Assembly: GCA_964537315.1 (NCBI GenBank)
Contig: CAZIAP010000001.1
Span: 314,888 to 378,887, forward strand
Length of the DNA: 64,000 nt
Source: an uncultured Gammaproteobacteria bacterium
GTDB taxonomy: Bacteria; Patescibacteriota; Microgenomatia; Levybacterales; GWA1-39-11
Direction: 5' to 3'
The notes under the pieces are model-generated. The model saw nothing but the letters and a program-made list of their open reading frames with translations, was not told the DNA's origin and did no database searches. Positions 3,801-58,689 of this stretch are shown here, one piece after another. The position numbers and the translations under genes are program-made. Numbering within the stretch: position 1 is the stretch's first letter; each line of letters opens with the position of its first letter.

Positions 3801-4378
3801 TTTTTAAGTGTTACAACAATCTCAGTGGCCCCACCTACCCAATAACACCAGATTCTTTCAAAAAATGTAGGTGACGCATTTATACATTTATCCATAAGTC
3901 TCACAAAAGGTCTAGCTACCAAGGGACATGAATTAGGATGGATATATTTTTCATATAAACCACTATTTGGATATAAGCCGAGATACTTAATCTCTTTCTT
4001 GAGGATAGAATAAGATTTTTTTGTATAAAAGTGTTGATAATGATTTTTTTCAAAGCAATCAAAGCTTGTTATGCCAAAAGGTCTTTTATGAGTAATATCA
4101 CTAAACGATCCCATTGATGAAAAATGTGGAACACGAATATTTATTATTCCTCCTGGTTTCAGAATTCTGTGAATCTCTTCAAGCACCTGTAATGGGTTAT
4201 CCAAGTGTTCAAGTACATGGTACATATGTACTTCCTTAATACTCGATGACTTAAATGGGTAAGGTAGAATGTTTAGATCATGAACAACATCAACAACCCC
4301 TTTTATATTCACTAAATCAACGCCGATAGAATTCGGTATTTTTGTTTTTCCACACCCTAAATGAAGAATATCTTTCAT
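3797..4378 (-). CDS. class I SAM-dependent methyltransferase
   Basis: Motif I ILHLGCGKTKIP, VLEHLDNP and LKPGGII resemble the Methyltransf_11/25 family. 4-nt overlap with neighbours. Confidence 0.75.
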   Translation of the reverse strand: MKDILHLGCGKTKIPNSIGVDLVNIKGVVDVVHDLNILPYPFKSSSIKEVHMYHVLEHLDNPLQVLEEIHRILKPGGIINIRVPHFSSMGSFSDITHKRPFGITSFDCFEKNHYQHFYTKKSYSILKKEIKYLGLYPNSGLYEKYIHPNSCPLVARPFVRLMDKCINASPTFFERIWCYWVGGATEIVVTLKK

Positions 4379-5037
4379 TAACTGTATTTTTTAATAAAAT
4401 TCTCGATAGAGATATTTTGTTTTATATCTTTAACCATTTCTACATTGTCCTGATTCCACCACTTTAACTTTAAAAGCTTTTTCACAATATCGTCAGAAAA
4501 TCGATATTTTATAATTCTCGCTGGATTTCCAACAACAATAGCATAAGGTGGTACGTCTTTAGTCACCACAGAACCAGCGCCTATAACAACACCATCACCA
4601 ATATTTACACCACCTAATATTATAACATTTGACCCTATATAGACATCATTGCCAATCTTAATCGGACGAGTAATACTATCGTCTCCTGATAGAGATAGAT
4701 TATTAAACGGATATGTCGAAACTGTACTGTACTTATGCGATTGAGGTAGAGTTATGAAATTTTGGGCGATAGACGTATATTTACCTATAGATGTGAAATT
4801 TATTTTTGTACAGCTTAGACCCAAATTATCTCCCGAAATGTAACTATAATCTCCTATTTTAGAATTTTCATCAACATATACTCCTCCCATAATTACAACA
4901 CCTTTTCCAATATCCTTTGTTAATATAAATGAATGAAAGGATATGTTTTTTCCAATATATCTTATACCATTTACAATAATATAGATTGGGTACAGACTAT
5001 ATATAATATAAGCAAATTTTATTATTTTAAATTTCAT
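4378..5037 (-). CDS. hexapeptide-repeat (left-handed beta-helix) sugar O-acetyltransferase
   Basis: Repeated [LIV]-G-x-x-x-x hexapeptides, e.g. IGSNVIILGGVNIGDGVVIGAGSVVTKDVPPYAIVVGNPARII. Confidence 0.8.
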   Translation of the reverse strand: MKFKIIKFAYIIYSLYPIYIIVNGIRYIGKNISFHSFILTKDIGKGVVIMGGVYVDENSKIGDYSYISGDNLGLSCTKINFTSIGKYTSIAQNFITLPQSHKYSTVSTYPFNNLSLSGDDSITRPIKIGNDVYIGSNVIILGGVNIGDGVVIGAGSVVTKDVPPYAIVVGNPARIIKYRFSDDIVKKLLKLKWWNQDNVEMVKDIKQNISIENFIKKYS

Positions 5038-6166
5038 TAGGTTTCATTTTATTAAAATATTCCTTATAAAAAAACGTAAAAGTCATGAGTAAAATGGACA
5101 ACCAAGTTAGTATACTAAATATTTGTATGTATAATGAAAAATCTGCTTTTGTAATCCAAGAAAAATAAGTGATTCCAATATATGACGTTGCAAGCAAAAT
5201 AAATATTCTACTAAAATTTACATGCATAAGAATCAGAAATGGTATTAACCATAAAAACCACTGGACACCAAACCCAAGTGTTAAAGCAAAAAACAAGAGG
5301 CATATTCCAATTACTTCTTTATTAATTGTAATTTTTTGCTTAACAAAAATAAATATTATCCCTAGCAACAACAATCCATATGAGAATCCTTTAATGTAAT
5401 ATCCAAACTCAGTAGGTATTTTTTGGATAATCAACCCCAACCCATAGTTTCCTGATATGCCTCGATATGAATAAATAGTCCACAATATTGATTGAATAGA
5501 TGATGCAAAAAACATATGGTATACCAATACAGACAAAATTGGAAACAGTAGAAGTAAAGGAACATAATAGATCTTGATTCTCTTAATTACAGGAATTGCA
5601 AACAAAATTGGCCAAGTCTTAGTGACTATTGCCAAAGAAGCAAAGATTGCACTATAAAAATTTTTTGAGTTTTCAGTTAAAAAATATGATAGTAAAATTA
5701 GAAATATTGGTATTGAATCAAACTGACCATGAAATGCAACGATAGATGCGCTTATAGGATTAATAGCGTATAAAAATGCTTTTTGTAGATTCTTATAACT
5801 CAATATATATAACATATAAACTACTCCCACATCGAAAATAATGAAAATAGTCTTTAAAAATAGTACATATGAAATATTCAGTTTTTGAATATACATAGCT
5901 ATCGCTTCTAGATATAGAAATACTGGAAAATACGGATGATGTAATGGTGCTACAGTTGGATAGATGTTATATTTCTGAAGTGTCAATTCACCTATTAAAT
6001 GATAAGAATCTAAATCAAAATTCGATATTCCATTTGACAAGAAAACAAATATAAGTCTAACAATAAATGCAAAAATAATTATTTCAATAATGGTTATTTT
6101 AACCTGATGTTTATAGTAATATAAAAACGCAACAAGCAAAAGTGATATAAAAATTATAAACATCAT
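5027..6166 (-). CDS. polytopic membrane protein, GT87/DUF2029-like putative mannosyltransferase
   Basis: 379 aa, about 10 TM helices. The loop motif DSYHLIGELTLQKYNIYP resembles the DUF2029 Y..G.nPY loop. Confidence 0.45.
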   Translation of the reverse strand: MMFIIFISLLLVAFLYYYKHQVKITIIEIIIFAFIVRLIFVFLSNGISNFDLDSYHLIGELTLQKYNIYPTVAPLHHPYFPVFLYLEAIAMYIQKLNISYVLFLKTIFIIFDVGVVYMLYILSYKNLQKAFLYAINPISASIVAFHGQFDSIPIFLILLSYFLTENSKNFYSAIFASLAIVTKTWPILFAIPVIKRIKIYYVPLLLLFPILSVLVYHMFFASSIQSILWTIYSYRGISGNYGLGLIIQKIPTEFGYYIKGFSYGLLLLGIIFIFVKQKITINKEVIGICLLFFALTLGFGVQWFLWLIPFLILMHVNFSRIFILLATSYIGITYFSWITKADFSLYIQIFSILTWLSILLMTFTFFYKEYFNKMKPNEI

Positions 6167-12239: not shown

Positions 12240-13298
12240 TTAAAATTTATAAACCTGCTGATATACTCGGGTTGTACCAGATATTGTTTTTTTCCAAGTA
12301 AATTTTTTTGCTTGTTGTAAACCTTTTTCTATTAAACCATCCCTGAGTTTTTTTGTAAAAAATACTTCGCCTACTCCATTCGCGATACTTGTTGTATCAT
12401 TTTCATCTACATAAAATGCCGCGTCACCGGCAATTTCAGATAGTGACCCACCTCTGGTAGTCACAACCGGACAACCTGATTGCATCGCTTCCAGTACTGG
12501 CAACCCAAAGCCTTCATATATGCTTGGCATTACAAATACATCAGCAATATTATAAAGCTTCACAAGGTCCTCCTGATCAACAAAACCTAGAGGTATAAAT
12601 CGTTTGTCTCCTTTCATCTTCTCCTGTACCAGAGCAAGATCACGGTTCCAAGGATTTGATTTATCATAGTCTGTAGATCCGATAGATTTACCAACAAGCA
12701 CTAAAGTAAGATTAATCTGTTTGATAGCATCAATCAGTCTAGGCAGATTCTTATTTGCTGTCACGTCTCCAACATAAAGTACGAAACGGTCTGGAAGACC
12801 GTATTTAGTTCTCAGTTCACGGTCCATAGTTCTTGGTATATTAAGCTGTTTAAATTCAGGACCTGCTGCTAGGTATACTGTATTTATTTTATTTTTTGAG
12901 ATTCCGGTGATTCGTGCTATGTCATTTGCAGAAGAGTTAGAATCGGTTATTATTGAGTCAGCTTGTGTAAGTAATTTCTTTTGTATTTGCCACTTTATAC
13001 TTCCTTTTACACCTGACGGAAACTGATGAGGAAACACGAGCGGAGTCAGATCATGGACTGTAACAACCAGCTTCGATTTTTTTATTAAAGGTAAGTGTAC
13101 AAAAAAAGGATCAAAGTATGGGATATGAAGTAAATCTACCTTATTATTACTATTAAGCTCGTTGATGTTATTAGAAAACACATACTCATTGTTTTTATCG
13201 TACTCAACAAGATGCTTTTTAAGGTTTTGAACATAAAAACCAACACCACGAATTTTGTGTCCAGATTGTAATGGGGATGTGTCAATTGCTATCTTCAT
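12240..13298 (-). CDS. glycosyltransferase family 4
   Basis: VFVMPSIYEGFGLPVLEAMQSGCPVVTTRGGSLSEIAGDAAFYVD contains the EX7E motif region of GT4. Confidence 0.85.
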   Translation of the reverse strand: MKIAIDTSPLQSGHKIRGVGFYVQNLKKHLVEYDKNNEYVFSNNINELNSNNKVDLLHIPYFDPFFVHLPLIKKSKLVVTVHDLTPLVFPHQFPSGVKGSIKWQIQKKLLTQADSIITDSNSSANDIARITGISKNKINTVYLAAGPEFKQLNIPRTMDRELRTKYGLPDRFVLYVGDVTANKNLPRLIDAIKQINLTLVLVGKSIGSTDYDKSNPWNRDLALVQEKMKGDKRFIPLGFVDQEDLVKLYNIADVFVMPSIYEGFGLPVLEAMQSGCPVVTTRGGSLSEIAGDAAFYVDENDTTSIANGVGEVFFTKKLRDGLIEKGLQQAKKFTWKKTISGTTRVYQQVYKF

Positions 13299-17133: not shown

Positions 17134-17961
17134 TTATTTAAATGATTGAATATATGACACAGGGAATCTTAGTGCTGAGAACAGAGAGAATACAAAACCC
17201 GACCACCCATCCATGAATCCTTTGTGTCTACCGTACGTTGTCACAAACCAGTGTCCAGGGCGTGCGATAAGATATCCGATTGCCTGGGTAAATATCTGAA
17301 AAGAATTCATCTTTTTCCGCTCTGTTTTAATTTCGTTGGCAAATAATGCATTATATCTTTTCCATTTTTGCAGATAAGCAGAAAAATTTTTATATGGATA
17401 GTGCAAAAGAGCGTGATCTAAGTAACCTACCTTTCCTTCGATTACTGCTTGCTCGTGTACGTCCTTTTGTGGCAGTTTTCCCTTCCCTCTTTTATATAAT
17501 CTCACTGTATAGTCAGGATACTGTCCTCCTTTCATGAGGAATCTGCCAAGAAAATAATTTTTACGAGGCATCCAGTAGCCATTAGGCTCAGTTATTAGTT
17601 CATGGTTCAAAGTTTTTGGTTTTTGCTTCTTTGCTCGTGAATCTTGACTCTTGCTTCCACGTCCTAAGACTTGTTTAATTTCTTCTGCAAGTTCAGGAGA
17701 AATAACTTCATCTGCATCCATCTGAAGAATCCAATCACCTGTTGCTTTATCAATCGACTTCTGTTTGTTTATATGAAAGTTAGGAGGATTGTCAGTCACG
17801 GTAACTTTTGCACCATACTGCTTTGCAATCTCTACAGTTTTGTCTGTTGATGTTCCATCAACAATCACTATCTCATCTGCAATGTCTTTTACTGACTCAA
17901 GACATCGAGCTAAGTTTTCTTCTTCATTAAATGTGGCAAGAACTACTGATAACTTTCCCAT
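17134..17961 (-). CDS. glycosyltransferase family 2 (paralog of 34023..34772)
   Basis: LSVVLATFNEEENLARCLESVKDIADEIVIVDGTSTDKTVEIAKQYGAKV; high similarity to the 34023..34772 N-terminal domain. Confidence 0.8.
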   Translation of the reverse strand: MGKLSVVLATFNEEENLARCLESVKDIADEIVIVDGTSTDKTVEIAKQYGAKVTVTDNPPNFHINKQKSIDKATGDWILQMDADEVISPELAEEIKQVLGRGSKSQDSRAKKQKPKTLNHELITEPNGYWMPRKNYFLGRFLMKGGQYPDYTVRLYKRGKGKLPQKDVHEQAVIEGKVGYLDHALLHYPYKNFSAYLQKWKRYNALFANEIKTERKKMNSFQIFTQAIGYLIARPGHWFVTTYGRHKGFMDGWSGFVFSLFSALRFPVSYIQSFK

Positions 17962-22840: not shown

Positions 22841-24535
22841 TTACTCAACCATTTTAACTGCAACTTCACCATTTAAATACTCAACTATATATACAGGCAA
22901 AACAGATTCCAGAAAGTCCTGAGTGCGTCCGACATGCAACACATTTCCTTCGCTTCTTTCATACTCAATCGGCTTGAAAACATATGAATCAAATTCCCTA
23001 TACCCACCTTCAAGATATTTTTTGACATCTTCATGATATTTTTTAGGAGGATACTGCAAGTGATATAAAAAGAAAATATATGATTGATCAAGCGGTGACT
23101 GGTCTGCAACTACTATTTTGTCATACCTATGTTTATTTTTTTCTGTGTATTCCACTACTTGTTTATATCCATACTGCCATTCCTGTGATGAAAAGTGGTT
23201 GTACTGCGAAAAGTATTGATTGAGATAGTAAGCTCCGCTTACAGTAGTAAGAATAAAGAATAAAGTATAAAGTAACGGACTTAATACCTGATACTTCATA
23301 CCTGATACTTTATACCTTGATATAAAAAGGAATGTTTGCACCAAACCAACTGCTCCAAAGATTTGAAATAGTGGCAAAAAATTCAAGGTTCGAACACTAC
23401 TGGGAACATCCCAGGTAACTGCTGCAGGAACTGGAACCAATAAAAACCATCCGAAAATAAAAAGTTTAATGCTTCTTGATATACCGCTAAGTAATAGTGT
23501 ATAGATTCCGATAAGAATGAATGGTAGAGTCCATATGTAAAGGTTTCCCATTGAAGGCGCATGATGTCTTTCGATAGTATCCCCTGTTACGAAAAGCCAG
23601 TTCGGATTAAAGTGCGCAAGGTAATTACCAATTATTATTTTTGTGTGTACTACCCTCGCGTTATTAAATATTATTCCAAGATAGTCACCTTGCATACGGT
23701 TTTGTGCTGTACGTGCATATGCTTCTTGAACCTGAGGATACTCTCGTGCAAATACGCTTACCCCACGTGCTCTGCTCAACGAATCTGGATTGGTAAGTGT
23801 GCTTGAGACAAAAGGAAAAACAATGATAGCACCGATTACAACAGTTAAAATAAGTACTGGTCTGGAAACACTTGATAATATTTTTTTCCAAAATAAAGTG
23901 AGTAACAATATCACCATTAACGGTACAAATAGCTTCTCACTCTGGTATAGATAAAGCGCAGAACCTAGAAACACCACACTAAGTGGAAATAATTTATTTT
24001 TGCGAAGTCCTGCGAAAAAAAACAAAAAACCTAAAATATTAAATGTAACTGCCGCATTCGCTTCAAAGGCTACTCGAGAAAACTGAATATGCCAAGGAGA
24101 AATAGCCAAAAGTCCTGCAGCGACTATTGGGGTTATTGCTGCCCATTTGCCGACTAGTGGACTATCATCTGATTTGTTTTTAACCTTTAAAAATCTCAGA
24201 GACAGAAATTCTTTTACCAAGAAATAAGTAGCGATTACAGCTGTAATCCCAAGCAATGCTGATGGAAGTCTTACTGCAATGTCAGACAACCCAAATAATG
24301 CAATGAGTGGAATAATAAAATAGACATACAATGCAGGTTTAAAATCCCCAAATGACCGAATTGTTAGGGGTAAAAACTCTCCATATTCATCTCTACCTGT
24401 TTGCAAAATTGAGTATGCGTTATATCCTAGCGCTGCCTCATCCCAATCAAGAGATACAGGAATATTCCCGAGCTGCCACAATCTTAGAACCGCGGCAATC
24501 AAAATGACAAAAAATAAAATTAATTTATATTTCAT
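22841..24535 (-). CDS. GT39-family (PMT/ArnT-like) polyprenol-phosphate-sugar dependent glycosyltransferase, tandem paralog 1
   Basis: N-terminus MKYKLILFFVILIAAVLRLWQLGNIPVSLDWDEAALGYNAYSIL...GRDEYGEFLP is the canonical PMT_2 DE-motif loop. Confidence 0.75.
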   Translation of the reverse strand: MKYKLILFFVILIAAVLRLWQLGNIPVSLDWDEAALGYNAYSILQTGRDEYGEFLPLTIRSFGDFKPALYVYFIIPLIALFGLSDIAVRLPSALLGITAVIATYFLVKEFLSLRFLKVKNKSDDSPLVGKWAAITPIVAAGLLAISPWHIQFSRVAFEANAAVTFNILGFLFFFAGLRKNKLFPLSVVFLGSALYLYQSEKLFVPLMVILLLTLFWKKILSSVSRPVLILTVVIGAIIVFPFVSSTLTNPDSLSRARGVSVFAREYPQVQEAYARTAQNRMQGDYLGIIFNNARVVHTKIIIGNYLAHFNPNWLFVTGDTIERHHAPSMGNLYIWTLPFILIGIYTLLLSGISRSIKLFIFGWFLLVPVPAAVTWDVPSSVRTLNFLPLFQIFGAVGLVQTFLFISRYKVSGMKYQVLSPLLYTLFFILTTVSGAYYLNQYFSQYNHFSSQEWQYGYKQVVEYTEKNKHRYDKIVVADQSPLDQSYIFFLYHLQYPPKKYHEDVKKYLEGGYREFDSYVFKPIEYERSEGNVLHVGRTQDFLESVLPVYIVEYLNGEVAVKMVE

Positions 24536-29738: not shown

Positions 29739-32066
29739 TTAAAACTTAAATAGTTTATTCTCAAATATCACTGTATGTCTTCCTGCAGGAACAATTACAC
29801 CGCGGAAAGCATAGTTTGTACGATAAATTTCAGTTTCTTTTCCGTTAATACTAGCGCTCCATGTAGGATAGTATGCATCAGTAAAAACCAGGTATCCTTC
29901 ACTATCACTATTTGTTTGAATATCTACCCTATTAGTATCATACCGTATTATACGCGCTGAACCAGATGCAAATGTTTGTGTTTGTATATCTCTGCCTACT
30001 ACTGCTTCAGAAGTTAAGTCATGTGAGTATAAGGCAGACAACTCAGCTTCTTGTGTGGAATAGCTATGGATCTGGGATACAAAAAATACTCTCGGTAATG
30101 CACGACTATTTTGATAAACAATTGTTTGTCCTTCTTCTGCAACTTTTTCTAAATATTCAGGAACTGATTGGGAGGTGGCAAGAATAAATCTTGTATTCAA
30201 TAAATGCATCAGGTCGGTGTTCATACGACGAGGCGTAACGATTCGATTAAACTCAATTAATGTATTGGTCTCTCCCTCTCCTCTCTCTAGAGCTGAAACA
30301 TATTTTCCGTACCATGTAGTATATAAAGGATCGTATCCGTCAACTGATGCAAGTTTATAGGTTGTTAAAAAATTTGCAGGCATTACTTCAGAATTTAAAG
30401 ATGCAACTCTAAATGGATCATGCTGATTTTCTAAATATGAGATGGTCTGAGTATTTGGAAAAAGATATTCTGGACGTGTAAATGGCAAGAATTTATCTGA
30501 AAATCTTAGTAAGTCTAGCGCTGCAATACCAAAAAACAGGAGCGGAACCACAAGTTTTGACCGATTGCCTGAAAACACATGTGCAAAAAATGCTGAACAT
30601 ACTGCTGCTGCAAAAAGAGCTGTTGGAAGAATCAAGTTTTTTTGCGCTACAACCCAGTTCTCCAAACTCTGCGCACCAAGCCAGCCTACTTTAAAAAATA
30701 CTAATACCCAAAGAGCCAACAGAATAGCGCCCACTAAAAATAAAACAGTGTAAAACTGATAATATGTCTTTCTTCCTTTATTGAGACGTGCTGTAAAATA
30801 CTCTAAACCAAACGACGCCAATACGGAGAATGAAAATGTAGAAATAAATAATAGTCGAGTTGGCTGTGCTGTGGACAGTAGAGGAATTTCTAGCATGTAG
30901 GGAAGTCTTGCGATCATATTATCAGTCGCAAACAACAATGACATTAACAACGTTACAGTAAAAAATATAGTCCTTTTACTTTTATAGAAAATGACAGCAA
31001 TACCCGCAAACAATAATGGAACGATCCCAACATAACCAACTAACTCTCCATAATTCCACGTCCCCCAGTAATTTAGAGTTGTAGGATTTCCAAAAAAATC
31101 AGGCGCCACAAATTGTATCAAATGTTGGATGGGGATGAACCAACCCTCTTGCTGTGAATATAACTGATCTGTCTGTCGTGCTGAAAGTAAAATAAACTGT
31201 AATGTAGGAATCCATTGAATAGCAGTTAGTAATAAGTACAGTGTATAGGGTATGAAGAAAAAGAGTAATAGCTTTAAATTTTTAGCCTGAATTGCTCGAG
31301 CCAGCAAATATAACAAAGAAAATGCGACTACATAAAAGTGGGTTTGTAAGTGTCCAGCAAATAACGAAAAGGACAGAGAATAAGAAAGAATTAAACTCCA
31401 GAGAACAATTAGTTTGTAGTTTGTGACGGATGGTTTCTTACTATGTTTAGATTTTAGCCATGAACTATTAGCTAATAACCAACTACTACTTTTATCTATT
31501 GATAAAAGTATCAATGGTAGCCACAACACAGTGTGTATAATATTTCCCCACTCAAGCCAAGCAATAAAAAATCCGGAAAAAACAAAAGCTAATGCTCCAA
31601 ACGCAGATGCTGATCGAGAAAGATTTAAGTTACGGGTATATAGATAAAAGAAAACTGCCCCCAGTATCTGCTGTAGCATAATAAATGCAGTCCACCCTAA
31701 AATAAAATTCTTTCCTATCAATAAAATGTTTAATGGATAAAATGCTCCTGACTGAAAATTGGCAAGCAGTGGTTTTCCAGTCATTTCATAAGGATTCCAC
31801 AATGGAAGTTCTAGTGCACGCCAAGAATCCATAACTAGCATCTTCCAAGGAATTATCTGTCGAACAGGGTCAGTGATTAAAAAATTTTTAAATGGAATTC
31901 CGTTAGGATAATCGGCAGCATACAGATCACGGTATGGGTGATATAGACCGATAATTGTATCCGCAGGAACAGGGATAAGACCGTGTAGGATTGTTTGATG
32001 AAAGAGTGCAAGTACTGTGCAGACTAAAAGAAAAGGATAAAAATACTTGGTAATAACTTCTCTCAT
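29739..32066 (-). CDS. very large polytopic membrane protein (775 aa), YfhO-like putative glycosyltransferase
   Basis: About 14 TM helices followed by a ~200-aa beta-rich C-terminal domain, an architecture typical of the YfhO family. Confidence 0.45.
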   Translation of the reverse strand: MREVITKYFYPFLLVCTVLALFHQTILHGLIPVPADTIIGLYHPYRDLYAADYPNGIPFKNFLITDPVRQIIPWKMLVMDSWRALELPLWNPYEMTGKPLLANFQSGAFYPLNILLIGKNFILGWTAFIMLQQILGAVFFYLYTRNLNLSRSASAFGALAFVFSGFFIAWLEWGNIIHTVLWLPLILLSIDKSSSWLLANSSWLKSKHSKKPSVTNYKLIVLWSLILSYSLSFSLFAGHLQTHFYVVAFSLLYLLARAIQAKNLKLLLFFFIPYTLYLLLTAIQWIPTLQFILLSARQTDQLYSQQEGWFIPIQHLIQFVAPDFFGNPTTLNYWGTWNYGELVGYVGIVPLLFAGIAVIFYKSKRTIFFTVTLLMSLLFATDNMIARLPYMLEIPLLSTAQPTRLLFISTFSFSVLASFGLEYFTARLNKGRKTYYQFYTVLFLVGAILLALWVLVFFKVGWLGAQSLENWVVAQKNLILPTALFAAAVCSAFFAHVFSGNRSKLVVPLLFFGIAALDLLRFSDKFLPFTRPEYLFPNTQTISYLENQHDPFRVASLNSEVMPANFLTTYKLASVDGYDPLYTTWYGKYVSALERGEGETNTLIEFNRIVTPRRMNTDLMHLLNTRFILATSQSVPEYLEKVAEEGQTIVYQNSRALPRVFFVSQIHSYSTQEAELSALYSHDLTSEAVVGRDIQTQTFASGSARIIRYDTNRVDIQTNSDSEGYLVFTDAYYPTWSASINGKETEIYRTNYAFRGVIVPAGRHTVIFENKLFKF

Positions 32067-33130
32067 GATATCAATAGTTGGTTAATCCTTTTGCAAAATT
32101 CCTCTATACTAAATCTATCTGAGGACTTTATAGCCGAGGCAGAATAATCTTTCAGTTTCATTTCATTTTTTATCAGAAGATTTGTGTAACTCATCAGTTC
32201 TTCTTGAGTATTCCATAATAATCCATTTTTTTCATGTTCGACTATCTCAACCTGACCTCCTGCATTAATTACTACTGGCACTGCGCCTGCCCCCATTGCC
32301 TCAACAGTTGAGATACCGAAGTGCTCTGCTCGCTCAGGATGTTTCTCAAGATCCTCTCCAAACCCTGATGCATGCCAGTATATTTTTGCCTTATTGTACT
32401 CTTTCCACAAATCTTTATTTATTGCATTTATGATAAATGAGATCGGATAACCTGCTGCCGTTGCTTGCATTTTTTGAAAATCAGCTAGGTCATGAGTACG
32501 AACACTTGCTGCAATAACAAGTTTCCAGTCTTTTAATCCTGCATCCACAAGCTTTTTGAAAGTATCGATCATGAAGTACTGCTTTTTGTAATCTGATCCC
32601 TCAACACCTGATTTCATAAATCTTCCCACATGAAGAATCACATTTTCTTTTTGAGCACTTTCTTTTTGTATATTGACCGGAGGATATAATATCTGGCTGT
32701 TTATACTCAGCTTCTTGTCTATTAACTCTTTTGTAAATTGAGAATTACAGATAACACCTGATACTTTTCGTAATTTAATTTTTGTTTTTAGATCTACCCG
32801 TACCCATTCAACCGGAAATTGCATATGAAGATATAGTTTTTTAGAAAACACAACAGGTATGCTTCCATCACTTAAATAAAAAATTACATCATATTTTCGA
32901 CTTGCAGATATTCGTTGGGTAAATGAGACACCTGGGCCAAAAATGTTTTTTTCACAACGAACCTTGGATAAATCTAATCCAAAGCGTTCTTCATTTTTTT
33001 CAATATCCTTCTCATCATCCCACAACATTATTACCTCGTGGTTTTTTGACAGACACTCGGCAGCCGTTAGCATGTACTTTTCTCCCCCACCTAATGTATC
33101 TAAGTAAGGGTCATATATAGCTATTTTCAT
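32063..33130 (-). CDS. glycosyltransferase family 4
   Basis: MKIAIYDPYLDTLGGGEKYMLTAAECL...ISTVEAMGAGAVPVVINAGGQVEIVEHEKNGLLW. Confidence 0.85.
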   Translation of the reverse strand: MKIAIYDPYLDTLGGGEKYMLTAAECLSKNHEVIMLWDDEKDIEKNEERFGLDLSKVRCEKNIFGPGVSFTQRISASRKYDVIFYLSDGSIPVVFSKKLYLHMQFPVEWVRVDLKTKIKLRKVSGVICNSQFTKELIDKKLSINSQILYPPVNIQKESAQKENVILHVGRFMKSGVEGSDYKKQYFMIDTFKKLVDAGLKDWKLVIAASVRTHDLADFQKMQATAAGYPISFIINAINKDLWKEYNKAKIYWHASGFGEDLEKHPERAEHFGISTVEAMGAGAVPVVINAGGQVEIVEHEKNGLLWNTQEELMSYTNLLIKNEMKLKDYSASAIKSSDRFSIEEFCKRINQLLIS

Positions 33131-33132
33131 AT

Positions 33133-33225
33133 TTCAGTATGCAGTATTCTGTATTCGGTATTCAGATATTATTTCACATACTGTATACTCGATTCTCGAT
33201 ACTTTATACTGTCTTGATTCTATCA
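33133..33225. repeat. tandem period-7 repeats (plus CAGTATT-like, minus GAATACN) immediately 5' of the start codon of the GT4 gene at 33130
   Basis: ttcagtatgcagtattctgtattcggtattcagatatt... followed by actgtatactcgattctcgatactttatactgtc. The same heptad family recurs at 24542..24576, 27954..27985 and 47033..47083. Confidence 0.6.
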
Positions 33226-33229
33226 GAGC

Positions 33230-33511
33230 TTGCATATGAAAAAAAGCTGTGGGATAATGAGAGTAATGAGCCCACTTGTAAATTCGCCTATTTTTCTTGC
33301 GCTAGTGATTTGGACTACTCTATGGAGAGCTCTTGCTTCGTGGAGAGCTGCCAGAAGCGGTCAAAGAAATTGGTTCATCGCGTTCTTTATTCCGATTAAT
33401 ACAGCAGGTATTCTTGAAATAATTTATCTGGTAAAGTTTGCTAAAAACCCACTTACCCTCGATGAAATTCGCAGCTGGGTACAAAGCAAACCCACCTCGA
33501 AGAAAAAGTAA
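33230..33511 (+). CDS. small two-TM membrane protein, DUF5652-like
   Basis: LWRALASWRAARSGQRNWFIAFFIPINTAGILEIIYLV matches, from memory, the ALWKAAR...WFI...NT.GILEI.YL signature of this small-protein family. Confidence 0.45.
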   Translation: MHMKKSCGIMRVMSPLVNSPIFLALVIWTTLWRALASWRAARSGQRNWFIAFFIPINTAGILEIIYLVKFAKNPLTLDEIRSWVQSKPTSKKK

Positions 33512-33648
33512 GTTAGTTATTGGTTAATAGTTCGTGGTTCACAGTTCATGGTTATTGGTTCACAGTAAAGCTTCAATAAATTGTTCGCGGTTATTGGTTC
33601 ATGGTTCGTGGTACATGGTTAATTCAAAGAAAGCTTCAAAGCATTAAT
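33512..33648. repeat. degenerate tandem/inverted short repeats (GTTATTGGTTCA, GGTTCACAG, AAAGCTTCAA) between convergent gene ends
   Basis: gttattggtt occurs 3 times, gttcgtggt 2 times and ggttcacag 2 times. Related motifs recur in inverse orientation at 34789..34861. Confidence 0.55.
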
Positions 33649-33981
33649 CATTTTCGTAAGTGACAAACATTTCATATATATACGCTTATATTTCTCTTCT
33701 GATAAATACTTTTGATTATTAGCTATAGTAAGTATTGCCACACATTCAAAGCAAGATCCTTTTGCTATATCCAGGAAATGCCGAAAATCTTTCTTTGTTC
33801 TACTAGTTCCCTCTGCTATATTAAGTGTGATAGATACTGCAGCTCTCTGAAGTTGATTTGTTAACCCAAACTGTTCTTCTTTTGGAAATTTTTTTGTAAT
33901 CTGATATATTTCATTACAAATTTTTAATGCATCTTGATACACTCTTAGGTCTTCAAATTTAAATTTTTCTTTTGAGTCCAT
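33619..33981 (-). CDS. four-helix-bundle protein (TIGR02436, the family also found in 23S rRNA intervening sequences)
   Basis: FEDLRVYQDALKICNEIYQITKKFPKEEQFGLTNQLQRAAVSITLNIAEGTSRTKKDFRHFLDIAKGSCFECVAILTIA reproduces the conserved QLRRAAvSi.NIAEG...FL.iA.GS..E pattern. Confidence 0.8.
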   Translation of the reverse strand: MDSKEKFKFEDLRVYQDALKICNEIYQITKKFPKEEQFGLTNQLQRAAVSITLNIAEGTSRTKKDFRHFLDIAKGSCFECVAILTIANNQKYLSEEKYKRIYMKCLSLTKMINALKLSLN

Positions 33982-34022
33982 ACTATGAACAATGAACTAT
34001 TAACTATTAACAACAAAAAGAA

Positions 34023-34772
34023 CTAGTTCTTTTTGTTTTGTAATTCCCAAAGCTTCGCGTAGGTAATAAACATTGAGTAGGTTTGGTAAATTGCTTCTAT
34101 AAATCCTTCCGTTCCATTTCTATACCCGTGGTCTTTTATATACGAGCTGAAAAAACCTGTAATCATTACTCTGATAAAACGAAGCGGCGTCATCGGTGGA
34201 TGTTTTGCGTCATACCTCAACTGCGCTTCATAATCTGACCACTCTATAGTTTTGTATAGCATCTGTGACAGATTCTGATGGGTAAAGTGATGTACCGGAC
34301 TTTCGATATGTCCGTACATACCATTAATTTCAGGAGTCTCGTGAACTGTTCCGTACCACTTAATAAATCGCTTTCTAACAAACAATCGCTGCACCTGATC
34401 CGTCATTCCCCAGTCTTTACCGTAATAATATGTTTTTCTTTTTATGTAGTATCCGCCGATATCAGAACTTGGATCATATTCAGATATTATCTTTTTTACT
34501 TCTGCGCAAAATCGCTTAGTTGCGAACTCATCTGAATCCAAATACAGTACCCAATCTCCTTTTGCTTGTCTAAAAGCAAAGTCTCTTTGATCTGCAAAAT
34601 TTTTCAAGCCGCGTCTGATAACTTTTGCTCCTGCAATTTTTGCTACTTCAACTGTCCTGTCAGTAGACTCTGAATCAACAACAATAACCTCGTCTGCAAT
34701 AGGTTTTATATTTCCGATACAATCGGCTAAAGTAAATTCTGAGTTTTTGGTTAAGATGATTACAGATAACAT
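34023..34772 (-). CDS. glycosyltransferase family 2 (paralog of 17134..17961)
   Basis: LSVIILTKNSEFTLADCIGNIKPIADEVIVVDSESTDRTVEVAKIAGAKV. Confidence 0.8.
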   Translation of the reverse strand: MLSVIILTKNSEFTLADCIGNIKPIADEVIVVDSESTDRTVEVAKIAGAKVIRRGLKNFADQRDFAFRQAKGDWVLYLDSDEFATKRFCAEVKKIISEYDPSSDIGGYYIKRKTYYYGKDWGMTDQVQRLFVRKRFIKWYGTVHETPEINGMYGHIESPVHHFTHQNLSQMLYKTIEWSDYEAQLRYDAKHPPMTPLRFIRVMITGFFSSYIKDHGYRNGTEGFIEAIYQTYSMFITYAKLWELQNKKN

Positions 34773-34788
34773 AATTTTCGTTCACAGT

Positions 34789-34861
34789 TCACCGTTCTCT
34801 GTTCACAGACTTCTTTTTTTGCTTTTACTGCGAACCGTGAACCAATAACAGTGAACCAACC
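34789..34861. repeat. GTTCACAG and GTGAACCAATAAC repeats, inverted copies of motifs at 33512..33648
   Basis: cgttcacagttcaccgttctctgttcacag and cgaaccgtgaaccaataacagtgaaccaacc. The latter is the reverse complement of ggttggttcactgttattggttcacggttcg. Confidence 0.5.
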
Positions 34862-35781
34862 TAATCCGATACAGGATAGCTTCCTCTTCCAAATTTTCTG
34901 AGATAGAAATCTTTGACCCCAAGCTTTTGCCATTTACGTCCGTTTCGTAAAATTCTCAAACTTTCCCGTATAAGTGCAACTTTTGTTCTAACACTTGCAT
35001 ACCGCATACCAAATAGCATCCTATTACGAGAGATATAATAATCTTGTAGATCAGATCCTGATCCGCCGGTTGACCCAGCGTTATCGTGCCATAAAATCGC
35101 AGATGGAACAAAATAAATGTTCCCGTAGTCTTTAAGTTTCATACATAGATCATTGTCCTCATAATACAGAAAATAGTTCTCATCAAAGTTGCCGGATTTA
35201 CCCAGTATGTCGGTACGAATTAATAAGCATGCTCCGGTTCCAAACTCTGTTTTTTCAGTTTTGTCGTACTGACCCTTATCAACTTCGTCGACTCCTCTAT
35301 GATGACCGACAATATTTTTCCAATCCATTTTACCACCAGCGTACCAGATTACTTTTCCCTGCTCAGACTTTTTATATCTATCGCTATGGAACTCTTGCCC
35401 GGCAGTAAAATATATTTTTGGTGCGACAGCAACAGCATCTTCCAGTTTTTTAATTTCATTTACAAGATTAGTAACTAAGTTTTTATCAGCCGTCGTATCA
35501 TTGTTTAGTATCAGTACATAATCAGCATTTTGTTCTTTCGCAAAAACTATCCCACGATTATGACCACCTGAAAATCCGAGGTTCTTAGATGAATGATCAA
35601 TCGACAGATTAAGCTTTTCATATTTTTTAGTTGATACCTCAAAAGGTATTTTTGAATGATTATCAACTACTCTTACAATTAAATTAACCCCTTCTTGTTT
35701 CATCTCAAGCAGTGAATCCAGACAGCGAACTGTCTTTTCAGATGAGTTATAGTTAATAATTGAAATAGCTACTTTCTTCAT
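34861..35781 (-). CDS. glycosyltransferase family 2 (rhamnosyltransferase-like)
   Basis: MKKVAISIINYNSSEKTVRCLDSLL...VVDNHSKI. Confidence 0.8.
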   Translation of the reverse strand: MKKVAISIINYNSSEKTVRCLDSLLEMKQEGVNLIVRVVDNHSKIPFEVSTKKYEKLNLSIDHSSKNLGFSGGHNRGIVFAKEQNADYVLILNNDTTADKNLVTNLVNEIKKLEDAVAVAPKIYFTAGQEFHSDRYKKSEQGKVIWYAGGKMDWKNIVGHHRGVDEVDKGQYDKTEKTEFGTGACLLIRTDILGKSGNFDENYFLYYEDNDLCMKLKDYGNIYFVPSAILWHDNAGSTGGSGSDLQDYYISRNRMLFGMRYASVRTKVALIRESLRILRNGRKWQKLGVKDFYLRKFGRGSYPVSD

Positions 35782-46814: not shown

Positions 46815-47032
46815 ATATGCGGATTGAAACCATAAAACTGCTTAAATTTTAACGTAGAATGTGAATCGAATCAAAGACACGTATAAATAGGCAGGTGTCT
46901 TTATCTTTAGAGTTCAAAAATTCTCGAATATAAGCAGATGTATGATCACAATCTGCCGCGGAATATATGTATTATATGCTAACTTACGCGATTTGTCAAT
47001 ACTAGAGGATAATCCTCCAATTGGCGGAAAAT

Positions 47033-47083
47033 ACCAAGTATTCAGTATGAAGTATCAAATATCAGGTATTAAGCATTAAGTAG
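47033..47083. repeat. period-7 NNNAGTA tandem repeats (same heptad family as at 33133)
   Basis: accaagtattcagtatgaagtatcaaatatcaggtattaagcattaagta. Confidence 0.5.
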
Positions 47084-47119
47084 AGAGTCTGCAGATATCA
47101 AGCTATACTGTGTACCAAT

Positions 47120-47195
47120 ATGTCAAGAACCGATCTTGACATATATATACATTTAGAAGCTAGAAATCAATATGTGTCAAGAACCGATCTAGACA
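47120..47195. promoter_or_regulatory. two copies, about 50 bp apart, of a ~21-bp palindromic site: TGTCAAGAACCGATCTTGACA, then TGTCAAGAACCGATCTAGACA
   Basis: The first copy has perfect 8-bp inverted arms (TGTCAAGA/TCTTGACA); the second has one mismatch. Both lie in the 432-bp intergenic region upstream of the mazG-like gene. Confidence 0.35.
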
Positions 47196-47246
47196 CTTTT
47201 ACTTCAAACCGTAAACTGTTAGCGAAGAGCTACCAACTATGAACTC

Positions 47247-47906
47247 TTAACTATTAACTAAATATCCAACGATATCTCTTATTTCCTGCTCGGTAACTCC
47301 GTGTCCTGAATCGTATTCTTTGATAGTGCACTCTACACCAAGCCTTTCAAGCGTATCAACTACTTTTTTACTTTCTGAAGGTGAAATCATATGATCCTGA
47401 AGTCCGATACTCACAAATGCACGAGTGTCACTATATTTCTGATTGAATTCAGGCTCAAACGGAAGCATAGGATGTAATAGAACTAGATTTTTCATTAATT
47501 GTGGGTAGTAAAATAGCATCGCACAAAGCATATTTGCGCCATTTGAGTATCCTAAAAAAGTCAAATCTTCTGATGAAACTTTATGTTTTTCCATCCAAGA
47601 ACGTATAAATGTTCCTAACTTTCCTGCCTCTTCTTTAATATTCTCCTGATCAAAAACTCCGAATGATATTCTTCTGAAAAACCGATTCATCCCTTTTTCT
47701 TGAACATTTCCCCTCAAGCCTACTAGATTATATTTTTTGTCTAAAAACTCATCTAAAAATAATAAGTCATGCTCATCTCCGCCAGTTCCATGAAGTAAAA
47801 ATAGCGTTTTTTTCGCTCCATTATCTATTTGTGAGTATTTAAAGGTTCCTAAACTTTCTTCCATAGTAAAATTAATCTGATGAAATCTTAGGCAAATTAG
47901 CCTCAA
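47247..47906 (-). CDS. alpha/beta hydrolase, phospholipase/carboxylesterase family (MhqD-like)
   Basis: LFLLHGTGGDEHDLL and GYSNGANM (nucleophile elbow G-x-S-x-G). 219 aa. Confidence 0.75.
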   Translation of the reverse strand: MRLICLRFHQINFTMEESLGTFKYSQIDNGAKKTLFLLHGTGGDEHDLLFLDEFLDKKYNLVGLRGNVQEKGMNRFFRRISFGVFDQENIKEEAGKLGTFIRSWMEKHKVSSEDLTFLGYSNGANMLCAMLFYYPQLMKNLVLLHPMLPFEPEFNQKYSDTRAFVSIGLQDHMISPSESKKVVDTLERLGVECTIKEYDSGHGVTEQEIRDIVGYLVNS

Positions 47907-48869: not shown

Positions 48870-49007
48870 GTTCAAGTCATGTTGACCGAACAGAATATCG
48901 TTATCAAAGGTTGAACCTTTATTAGTAATTTTTCATGCCTAGTCAAGGTTGATCCTTTATAAGTGATTTCTCGTGCTTAACAGAGGTTCAACCTTTGATA
49001 TAAACCC
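48870..49007. repeat. 3-4 tandem ~37-38-bp units, each carrying a palindromic core (AAAGGTTGAACCTTT, AAGGTTGATCCTT, AGAGGTTCAACCTTTGA), upstream of the dioxygenase start
   Basis: atcaaaggttgaacctttattagtaatttttcatgcct / agtcaaggttgatcctttataagtgatttctcgtgctt / aacagaggttcaacctttgatataaaccc. The first core is a perfect 15-bp palindrome. Confidence 0.6.
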
Positions 49008-58616: not shown

Positions 58617-58689
58617 TGACCCCACGGGAATTCGAATCCCGGTTTCTGGGATGAGAACCCAGTGTCCTAGGCCTCTAGACGATGGGGCC
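58617..58689 (-). tRNA. tRNA-Glu (anticodon CUC), 73 nt, CCA not encoded
   Basis: Manual fold: acceptor GGCCCCA/TGGGGTC, D-arm GTCT-AGAGGCCTA-GGAC, anticodon arm CTGGG-TTCTCAT-CCCAG (U33, CUC, A37), variable loop AAAC, T-arm CGGGA-TTCGAAT-TCCCG, discriminator A. Confidence 0.85.

Follow-up and report, generated by a model that had tools for sequence, protein, structure and literature searches.

The 64-kb stretch of contig CAZIAP010000001.1 analysed here (the window, in whose positions all coordinates are given unless a relative is named) raises the question of what kind of unit is formed by a small gene for a four-helix-bundle (4HB) protein of the ribosomal RNA (rRNA) intervening sequence (IVS) family and the inverted short repeats around it, when both are set in an extensive glycosylation gene cluster on the minus strand, in an AT-rich bacterium from the Microgenomates group of the Candidate Phyla Radiation (CPR). 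The reading favoured here, to which a probability of roughly 0.6 is assigned, is that positions 33512-34013 (minus strand) constitute an IVS-type stem-loop element of ~0.5 kb which lies in an mRNA spacer, carries the 4HB gene in its loop, has arms composed of inverted imperfect 7-nt arrays, and would serve as a substrate for RNase III. The anatomy and the mobility of this element are well supported, and the RNase III mechanism is put forward with moderate confidence, by analogy.

Layout of the locus and identity of the 4HB protein

Read on the sense strand of the operon (minus), the genes and spacers concerned succeed one another as follows, the site of the element being the convergent junction of GT2-249 and the small DUF5652 gene.

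34861..35781: GT2-306 gene
88 nt: spacer between GT2-306 and GT2-249
34023..34772, minus strand: GT2-249, a GT2 glycosyltransferase gene (249 aa, PF00535)
41 nt: spacer between GT2-249 and the 4HB gene
33619..33981, minus strand: 4HB gene, an open reading frame (ORF) of 120 aa (PF05635 23S_rRNA_IVP / TIGR02436)
107 nt: spacer between the 4HB gene and the DUF5652 gene
33230..33511, strand opposite to GT2 and 4HB: DUF5652 gene
99 nt, divergent: spacer between the DUF5652 gene and GT4
32063..33130: GT4 gene

The first-pass annotation had recognised from the sequence both a four-helix-bundle ORF of the rRNA-IVS family and a GT2 gene adjoining it, and both identifications were confirmed. Judged by its profile scores, the 120-aa ORF is a member of the PF05635 / TIGR02436 family: it matched PF05635 at 130.8 bits (cut-off 33.8; E = 2.8e-38), with residues 10-114 aligned to profile positions 1-106, and TIGR02436 at 118.7 bits (cut-off 24), and its length lies within the family range of ~115-125 aa. 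It is the sole 4HB gene of the window. Homologs of the 4HB protein carry names from the Levy-, Roizman- and Woesebacteria. An alignment of 30 homologs contained 20 invariant columns, among them N54, A56, E57, G58 and R61 of the core motif LNIAEG..R, and the profile built from it matched the PDB entries 2GSC (E = 8e-23) and 2RLD (4e-06). The first of these is XCC0516 of Xanthomonas campestris, whose S23p crystal structure is a toroidal homopentamer of four-helix bundles (PMC4990558), a fold to which the protein of the window is linked by sequence relation alone.

No nuclease, transposase or recombinase domain was recognisable in the 4HB protein, its only matches being those to PF05635 and TIGR02436, and models of defence systems (PADLOC) returned no matches. 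Rfam assigned to the window a single tRNA (58617-58689), with nothing in the region of the element and no rRNA, and no relative was found in IMG/VR that would indicate carriage by phage.

Heptamer arrays and predicted structure of the element

All four local spacers consist of imperfect tandem 7-mers, 7 being the sole strong short period in the window. The two arrays that enclose the 4HB gene are the following.

33982..34013, minus strand: 5' arm, ~4.5 imperfect heptamers of the GTTNNNN type (GTTGTTA ATAGTTA ATAGTTC ATTGTTC ATAGT), abutting the 4HB ATG
33512..33618, minus strand: 3' arm, two arrays of the NNNNAAC type, distal (33512-33566) and proximal (33583-33620), with a 16-nt spacer between them

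The 5' arm is 83% complementary to 33516-33545, and the proximal array of the 3' arm overlaps the 4HB stop codon. In both the minimum free energy (MFE) and the centroid folds of the whole 521-nt element, 33978-34014 paired with 33512-33556, that is, with the distal 3' array; the predicted closing stem is of ~30 bp, enough for at least two turns of dsRNA, the loop of ~450 nt contains the ORF, and the AUG would be sequestered in the fold.

These structures bear directly on the inverse-oriented GGTTCAC-type repeats reported previously, which had been taken to bracket the GT2 and 4HB genes as a pair. The repeats themselves are genuine: gttattggttcacag at 33551-33565 has its near reverse complement at 34826-34859, the 35-nt arms 33535-33569 and 34824-34858 are 80% complementary, and matches to GTTCAYRGTTNDY with no more than one mismatch numbered 22 in the window against 6.7 +/- 2.5 expected, 14 of the 22 falling within 33523-34856. 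However, the array 33512-33618 is equally complementary to 33982-34011 (30 nt, 83%), directly upstream of the 4HB start, which means that the 4HB gene alone is bracketed; and the right-hand repeat belongs to a self-contained hairpin with the following position and form.

34779..34859, minus strand: ORF-less heptamer hairpin in the GT2-306/GT2-249 spacer, arms 34779-34808 and 34826-34859, loop of ~17 nt

On the sense strand this hairpin has a folding energy of -26.7 kcal/mol (z = -3.84) and on the other strand one of -19.2 kcal/mol (z = -3.38), and it is built of GTTCAC words like those of the 4HB arms. The internal arm at 33982-34013 and the self-contained hairpin at 34779-34859 together rule out the outer repeats as ends of a cassette. 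A further ORF-less hairpin occupies the neighbouring divergent spacer.

33132..33212: second ORF-less hairpin, DUF5652/GT4 spacer, words CAGTATT / ATACTGN

It lacks GTTCAC words, and its z-scores on the two strands are -4.85 and -3.59. The imperfect heptamer arrays form three separate structures, and the left and right repeats of the earlier description lie in different ones with a vocabulary in common; we infer that the ORF-less heptamer hairpins are cargo-less relatives of the element or products of the same repeat-forming process.

Recent exchange of the element and its variation among relatives

Look-ups of GT2 and 4HB homologs yielded seven syntenic loci, with GT2 66-80% identical to that of the window, and these constitute the relatives referred to below; a metagenome scan seeded with GT2 added a single distant locus (L011, 47%), which was left out of further analysis. 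Comparison of the window with the relative L002 gave the following nucleotide-level profile across the site.

GT2 body: 74% nucleotide identity
last 100 nt of GT2: 87%
spacer plus 5' arm (33982-34022): 41/41
4HB ORF: 354/363, the 9 differences being 6 synonymous and 3 non-synonymous
3' arm: 74-nt indel, L002 having a single 33-nt array
DUF5652: 67%

At the protein level the identities to L002 were 98% for 4HB, 80% for GT2 and 66% for GT4, host proteins in general falling at 66-80%. Because the 5' arm and ORF are 97-100% identical between flanking genes of only 67-74% identity, the comparison indicates that the 4HB element has recently been moved or exchanged, and the unit so transferred is the 4HB gene with its own arms. 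An assembly chimera was rejected as the source of this island, its identity being 97.5% and not 100% and its left edge being graded through the last 100 nt of GT2; moreover, the L002 allele is found in four independent assemblies, and the arrangement of the window was reproduced in an independent assembly. The 4HB protein is under purifying selection.

Across the relatives, the state of the GT2-249/DUF5652 spacer was as follows.

L002-L005: 4HB present, same orientation, 4HB identity 98%
L097: 4HB present, same orientation, 4HB identity 66%
L007 (= L012): 4HB present, inverted and co-directional with DUF5652, 4HB identity 70%
L092: 4HB absent, 54-nt spacer without heptamers
L096: 4HB absent, no repeats at all, spacers of 5 nt and 4 nt (GT2-249/DUF5652 = 4 nt)
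L094: 4HB replaced by an unrelated 915-nt insert

At this spacer the empty alleles L092 and L096 are without the arms as well as without the gene, and by GT2 sequence the filled locus L097 is nearest to the empty L092 (80%). No direct target-site duplication was found on comparing filled with empty junctions. By way of contrast, GT2-249 occupied the same synteny in every one of the seven relatives, whether or not the 4HB element was there. It had been described as a duplicate of 17134..17961, and the two are only 29% identical, which rules out a recent GT2 duplication; because of that low identity they are old paralogs, and GT2-249 is a resident gene of the glycosylation cluster that lies outside the element.

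The 915-nt insert of L094 (877-1791 of that locus) appeared more GC-rich than its surroundings and contained no 4HB gene, its ORFs being one of 87 aa with CPLC...CPIC motifs (zinc-ribbon-like) and an acidic one of 54 aa. The GT2-249/DUF5652 spacer is apparently a hot spot for insertion.

One further structure is confined to filled sites, namely the following.

34012..34037, minus strand: perfect palindrome of 26 nt around the GT2-249 stop codon, which falls within the 4-nt loop (CUAG) of an 11-bp stem; directly abuts the 5' arm

Counterpart stop-codon hairpins were present in the filled L097 (~4736-4761) and L007 (~5296-5323), with a different sequence in each of the three independent filled alleles, and none was detected in the empty L092 (z = -0.56) or L096 (z = +1.28). 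The palindrome may be a footprint of insertion or a terminator associated with the element. Small GC-rich hairpins were also seen just outside the arms in L027, L040, L044, L045 and L058, which are among the wider set of loci described in the next section.

The neighbouring spacers are also variable. Orthologs of the spacer with hairpin 34779-34859 each contain a hairpin of different sequence in L002, L097, L007 and L092, and none in L096. In the DUF5652/GT4 spacer (33131-33229 in the window) the array differs from relative to relative, being a CAGTATT hairpin in the window, (GAAGTAT)x8 in L092 (5060-5268), (GATTAGT)x13 in L097 (5460-5608) and a GTTAACG hairpin in L002 (1589-1734; z = -5.5), so that heptamer repeats are hypervariable in a divergent promoter region. 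L092 also has a dispersed repeat of ~40 nt (TATACCCCAAGGGTACTAGCTACTTCGTAGCGG..GT.AAGTAT) in two spacers (3901-3947 and 5170-5210), each copy beside heptamer arrays, which we take to resemble the small dispersed repeats of cyanobacterial heptamer tracts.

Recurrence of the layout in other phyla

A profile scan restricted to one genome per species returned 80 4HB loci, from CPR lineages, Zixibacteria, Ignavibacteria, Omnitrophota, Planctomycetia, Armatimonadota, Terriglobales and several Bacteroidota. Their printed flanks displayed the same layout almost everywhere, in words that vary by taxon (GTTCATA, GTTAATG, GATAGAC, CTTAGAA and others). Period-7 arrays numbered 61 in the ~24 kb adjoining 4HB genes versus 86 in the 494 kb farther off, a density ~15-fold higher; periods 5, 6 and 9-11 were near zero, period 8 was minor, and shuffled sequences gave zero. 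Arrays of period 8 flank a minority of 4HB genes (L043 and others, with GCTTAGAA-type words), 11 being near and 20 far.

Flank pairing was scored by ungapped complementarity, duplex energies calculated on ~100-nt flanks having been dropped with shuffled controls also at ~-33 kcal/mol. On this score a locus's own flanks were inverted and complementary in 32 of 78 loci, as against direct repeats in 3 of 78 and complementarity to the flanks of other loci in 28 of 390 comparisons, and MFE folds contained at least 20 flank-to-flank pairs in 45 of 78 loci versus 20 of 78 for a control with the 3' flank reversed. The upstream neighbour was co-directional with the 4HB gene in 56 of 73 loci, and an rRNA match within +/-4 kb was found at none of 78. 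The scan thereby shows a recurrent arrangement, met with in several phyla and in every case outside rRNA, of a 4HB gene flanked by inverted arrays of period 7.

Seven loci (L027, L038, L040, L045, L052, L053 and L058), in bins of Zixibacteria, Ignavibacteria and Terriglobales, have in common a conserved stable-RNA operon context, in which a tRNA, the 4HB element and the large signal recognition particle (SRP) RNA follow one another co-directionally, with ~50-85 nt from the end of the tRNA to the 4HB gene and ~90-105 nt from the 4HB gene to the start of the SRP RNA. The element of L069 lies inside a tRNA cluster and that of L087 ~250 nt after a transfer-messenger RNA (tmRNA). On a reading of the flanks only, four elements with different arms (L016, L018, L019 and L030) apparently occupy one site, after an ORF ending in ..MYHGKLIV* and before a gene start with ..GMHC.. 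(heavy-metal-associated-like).

Heptamer arrays away from 4HB genes

Arrays of period 7 are also present elsewhere in the window, in some instances within ORFs. Inside the GT2 paralog 17134..17961 (minus strand), positions 17598-17617 hold NNNNAAC heptamers (CAAAAAC CAAAAAC TTTGAAC CATGAAC TAATAAC on the coding strand) that translate as ..QKPKTLNHELITE.. and fall where the pairwise alignment shows an insertion relative to GT2-249; because this run lies in an ORF, at that insertion, heptamer arrays seem able to invade coding sequence. Two inverted period-7 arrays at 23240-23318, inside the PMT_2-like ORF 22841..24535 (minus strand), form a hairpin (-21.4 kcal/mol, z = -3.48) and translate as SRYKVSGMKYQVLSPLLYTLFF, a stretch of variable length among paralogs, and four consecutive heptamers of the GTTCNCR type (GTTCTCA GTTCACG GTCCATA GTTCTT) occur at 12808-12834 inside the ORF 12240..13298 (minus strand). 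Arrays of unrelated words (AAGTATN; AACTATT/GAAC) stand at 47036-47080 and 47230-47262, the ends of a 432-nt non-coding spacer (46815-47246), with a 38-nt tandem repeat of 2.5 copies nearby at 48901-48996.

The background density of heptamer arrays away from 4HB genes was ~1.7 per 10 kb. Among 21 loci, a heptamer word was common to the distant arrays and the local 4HB arms in 24% of cases, compared with 17% for the arms of other loci; within a locus, the overlap in vocabulary between arms and distant arrays is weak.

Proposed mechanism and points against it

According to the favoured reading of an IVS-type element, the 4HB gene would have no promoter of its own and would be expressed by read-through from the upstream gene, which would be the GT2 operon in the window and DUF5652 in L007. 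The arms would pair in the read-through transcript, with sequestration of the AUG, and RNase III would cut the arm duplex as it does in 23S rRNA intervening sequences, thereby separating the host RNA on either side and releasing the 4HB message. The read-through and RNase III steps are proposed by analogy with the 23S IVS of Coxiella. The DNA itself may move by recombination via the flanking sequence, by inversion between the two arms or by a hairpin-directed mechanism. A consensus-based scan found no canonical terminator.

A number of observations weigh against this reading. Arm pairing showed no strand bias: the sense duplex had the greater stability in 39 loci and the antisense duplex in another 39, with 401 versus 419 G-U pairs. 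On these counts a G-U strand bias was rejected as proof of an RNA-level stem, and the lack of bias does not favour selection on an RNA stem over DNA symmetry. The fold control also often paired the flanks, as noted above (20 of 78 loci), and both neighbours run antisense to the 4HB gene in 9 of 68 loci. Arrays that are one-sided and direct, that lie in a divergent spacer or that lie within ORFs are not explained by an RNase III stem. That no sigma-70-like promoter was seen in the minus-strand interval from GT2 to the 4HB ATG, a point in favour of read-through, is the result of a consensus scan of a kind that may miss CPR promoters, and the hairpin on the GT2-249 stop codon could terminate the read-through on which expression would depend. 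Finally, the excised IVS RNA of Coxiella is degraded and its S23p is probably not made (PMC4990558).

Alternative explanations

The best surviving alternative, here judged unlikely, is a selfish system acting on DNA in the manner of repetitive extragenic palindromic (REP) sequences and their REP-associated tyrosine transposases (RAYT), in which the arrays would be sites in DNA or single-stranded DNA hairpins recognised by the pentameric 4HB protein, the 4HB copy the autonomous one, and the ORF-less arrays non-autonomous copies which it would spread or maintain. The one-sided arrays, those of the divergent spacer and those within ORFs all fit such a DNA-level system. Its further attractions are that the repeats present in inverted copies on either side of the 4HB gene are of a type found scattered elsewhere without cargo, that arm pairing is strand-symmetric, that the arrays are hypervariable and different in every relative at the same spacer, that the element is inverted in L007, and that palindromic junctions occur at filled sites only; relatives in the Avd family have been described as nucleic-acid-binding. 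Set against these are a 4HB protein without recognisable nuclease, transposase or recombinase domain, the small margin (24% versus 17%) by which distant arrays match local arms in their heptamer words, the different words (CAGTATT) of the hairpin at 33132-33212, and the failure to find a target-site duplication.

A second alternative regards the 4HB gene as an ordinary small gene that happens to stand between generic intergenic hairpins, these being slippage microsatellites or terminator or mRNA-stabilising structures of AT-rich CPR genomes. The background of ~1.7 arrays per 10 kb, the occurrence of arrays in several spacers of the cluster in all relatives, and the small terminator-like hairpins that flank many elements would all be expected on this basis. 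It is, however, already disfavoured, and is considered distinctly improbable, in view of the ~15-fold density of arrays beside 4HB genes over 80 loci from several phyla, the complementarity of arms to their own partners and not to the arms of other loci, the 5' arm that travels with the 4HB gene (41/41 in the identity island), the joint absence of arms and gene from L092 and L096, and the same heptamer-plus-ORF layout in the rRNA IVS of Coxiella (PMC4990558).

The weakest alternative, a composite 1.25-kb cassette in which the GT2 paralog and the 4HB gene would have been mobilised or duplicated jointly between the repeats at 33512..33648 and 34831..34861, as the first-pass annotation had it, can draw on outer arrays that are 80% complementary over 35 nt but is refuted by the presence/absence pattern and may be dismissed: the synteny of GT2-249 is kept in all relatives irrespective of repeats or 4HB, that gene shares only 29% identity with 17134..17961, the identity island in the L002 comparison comprises the 4HB gene and 5' arm without the GT2 body, the sequence 34779-34859 is a complete hairpin alone, and orthologous loci hold GT2 without repeats (L096), the very arrangement which that annotation had named as contrary to its proposal, or without heptamers and 4HB in the GT2/DUF5652 spacer (L092). 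What does survive of the mobile-cassette proposal is that a cassette exists, in that the 4HB gene and its own arms vary; the unit was wrongly drawn, GT2 always being present.

Comparison with known systems

The closest known counterparts of the IVS-type element proposed here are the 23S rRNA intervening sequences with an S23p ORF of Coxiella burnetii, Leptospira and Brucella. That of C. burnetii is 428-444 nt long, has a 28-bp terminal stem with the S23p ORF in the loop, and carries three tandem copies of GACAGAT plus a degenerate fourth before the ATG, the number varying between strains and the first heptamer being the RNase III cut site; such sequences have been described as selfish and horizontally acquired (PMC4990558). 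Element and IVS have in common the protein family, a size of ~0.43-0.5 kb, an ORF in the loop of a terminal-inverted-repeat stem of ~28-30 bp, and heptamers directly before the ATG. They differ in that the element of the window is situated in an mRNA spacer among glycosyltransferase genes of a cluster (none of 78 related loci being in rRNA), in that both of its arms are heptamer arrays throughout, and in that its 4HB protein is under purifying selection and not decaying. Because it is not in rRNA, the element falls outside the strict rRNA-IVS class, yet it agrees with that class in all structural features open to testing.

Avd, the accessory protein of diversity-generating retroelements (DGR; PF22296, NF033474), is a distantly related four-helix bundle of similar length, and the depositions of the two PDB relatives, 2GSC and 2RLD, contain five chains each. 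The 4HB protein of the window scored below the relevant cut-offs (32.7 versus 40 bits for PF22296, 25.6 versus 80 for NF033474), and no reverse transcriptase or template and variable repeats lie nearby, the called genes within +/-10 kb being glycosyltransferases, a flippase and DUF5652. On the strength of these scores and the lack of a neighbouring reverse transcriptase, it is classed as not being a DGR Avd.

With REP sequences, their bacterial interspersed mosaic elements (BIME) and RAYT genes (REPtrons) the element has in common a gene between inverted copies of a short repeat that is also scattered cargo-less in spacers. However, its cargo is not an HUH Y1 tyrosine transposase, its repeats are periodic 7-mers of variable word and not one fixed palindrome, and the sequence link between arms and dispersed arrays is weak in 4HB loci. 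Miniature inverted-repeat transposable elements (MITE) and other small non-autonomous transposons are likewise short, with terminal inverted repeats, presence/absence polymorphism and ORF-less copies, but the element has no transposase ORF, no target-site duplication was seen, and its arms are tandem repeats of variable length.

Heptamer repeats are also known as the short tandemly repeated repetitive (STRR) sequences of cyanobacteria, the heptamers of Nostoc, the TAACTGA repeats of Beggiatoaceae and those of Geobacter, which are tandem, intergenic or sometimes intragenic, near start codons and variable in number, with no protein partner described (PMC4679880, PMC2700814, bioRxiv 10.1101/2022.06.06.494920). 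These have been described as direct arrays, with no connection drawn to PF05635 genes, whereas those of the window are inverted pairs around a 4HB gene. In the full-text literature, to the exclusion of subscription journals outside its coverage, no general link of PF05635 genes to inverted heptamer arms was found, heptamers being mentioned only for the Coxiella IVS.

A wider and frankly speculative proposal is that 4HB proteins and period-7 repeats form one selfish system extending over many phyla, in which the 4HB pentamer would bind or propagate the STRR, TAACTGA, Geobacter and Coxiella heptamers, the rRNA IVS would be one niche among mRNA spacers and tRNA and SRP-RNA operons, and the palindromic junctions would be footprints of hairpin-based insertion.

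Significance

So far, intervening sequences and S23p/4HB ORFs have been regarded as an oddity confined to rRNA genes, and heptamer repeats as an unrelated problem without a known partner. The locus of the window and the 80-locus comparison place the ORF-in-heptamer-stem module mostly outside rRNA, where it behaves as a discrete mobile unit, subject to gain, loss and inversion and found as a near-identical copy in diverged flanks. For annotation, inverted heptamer arrays around a TIGR02436 gene should be read as the element's own ends and not as those of a larger cassette. If the RNase III step holds true, such elements would provide fixed cleavage points in polycistronic mRNAs and in the precursors of stable RNAs, in CPR bacteria, Bacteroidota, Zixibacteria and other groups; and should the repeats be recognised by the 4HB protein, a very large and so far uncharacterised family would gain a function.

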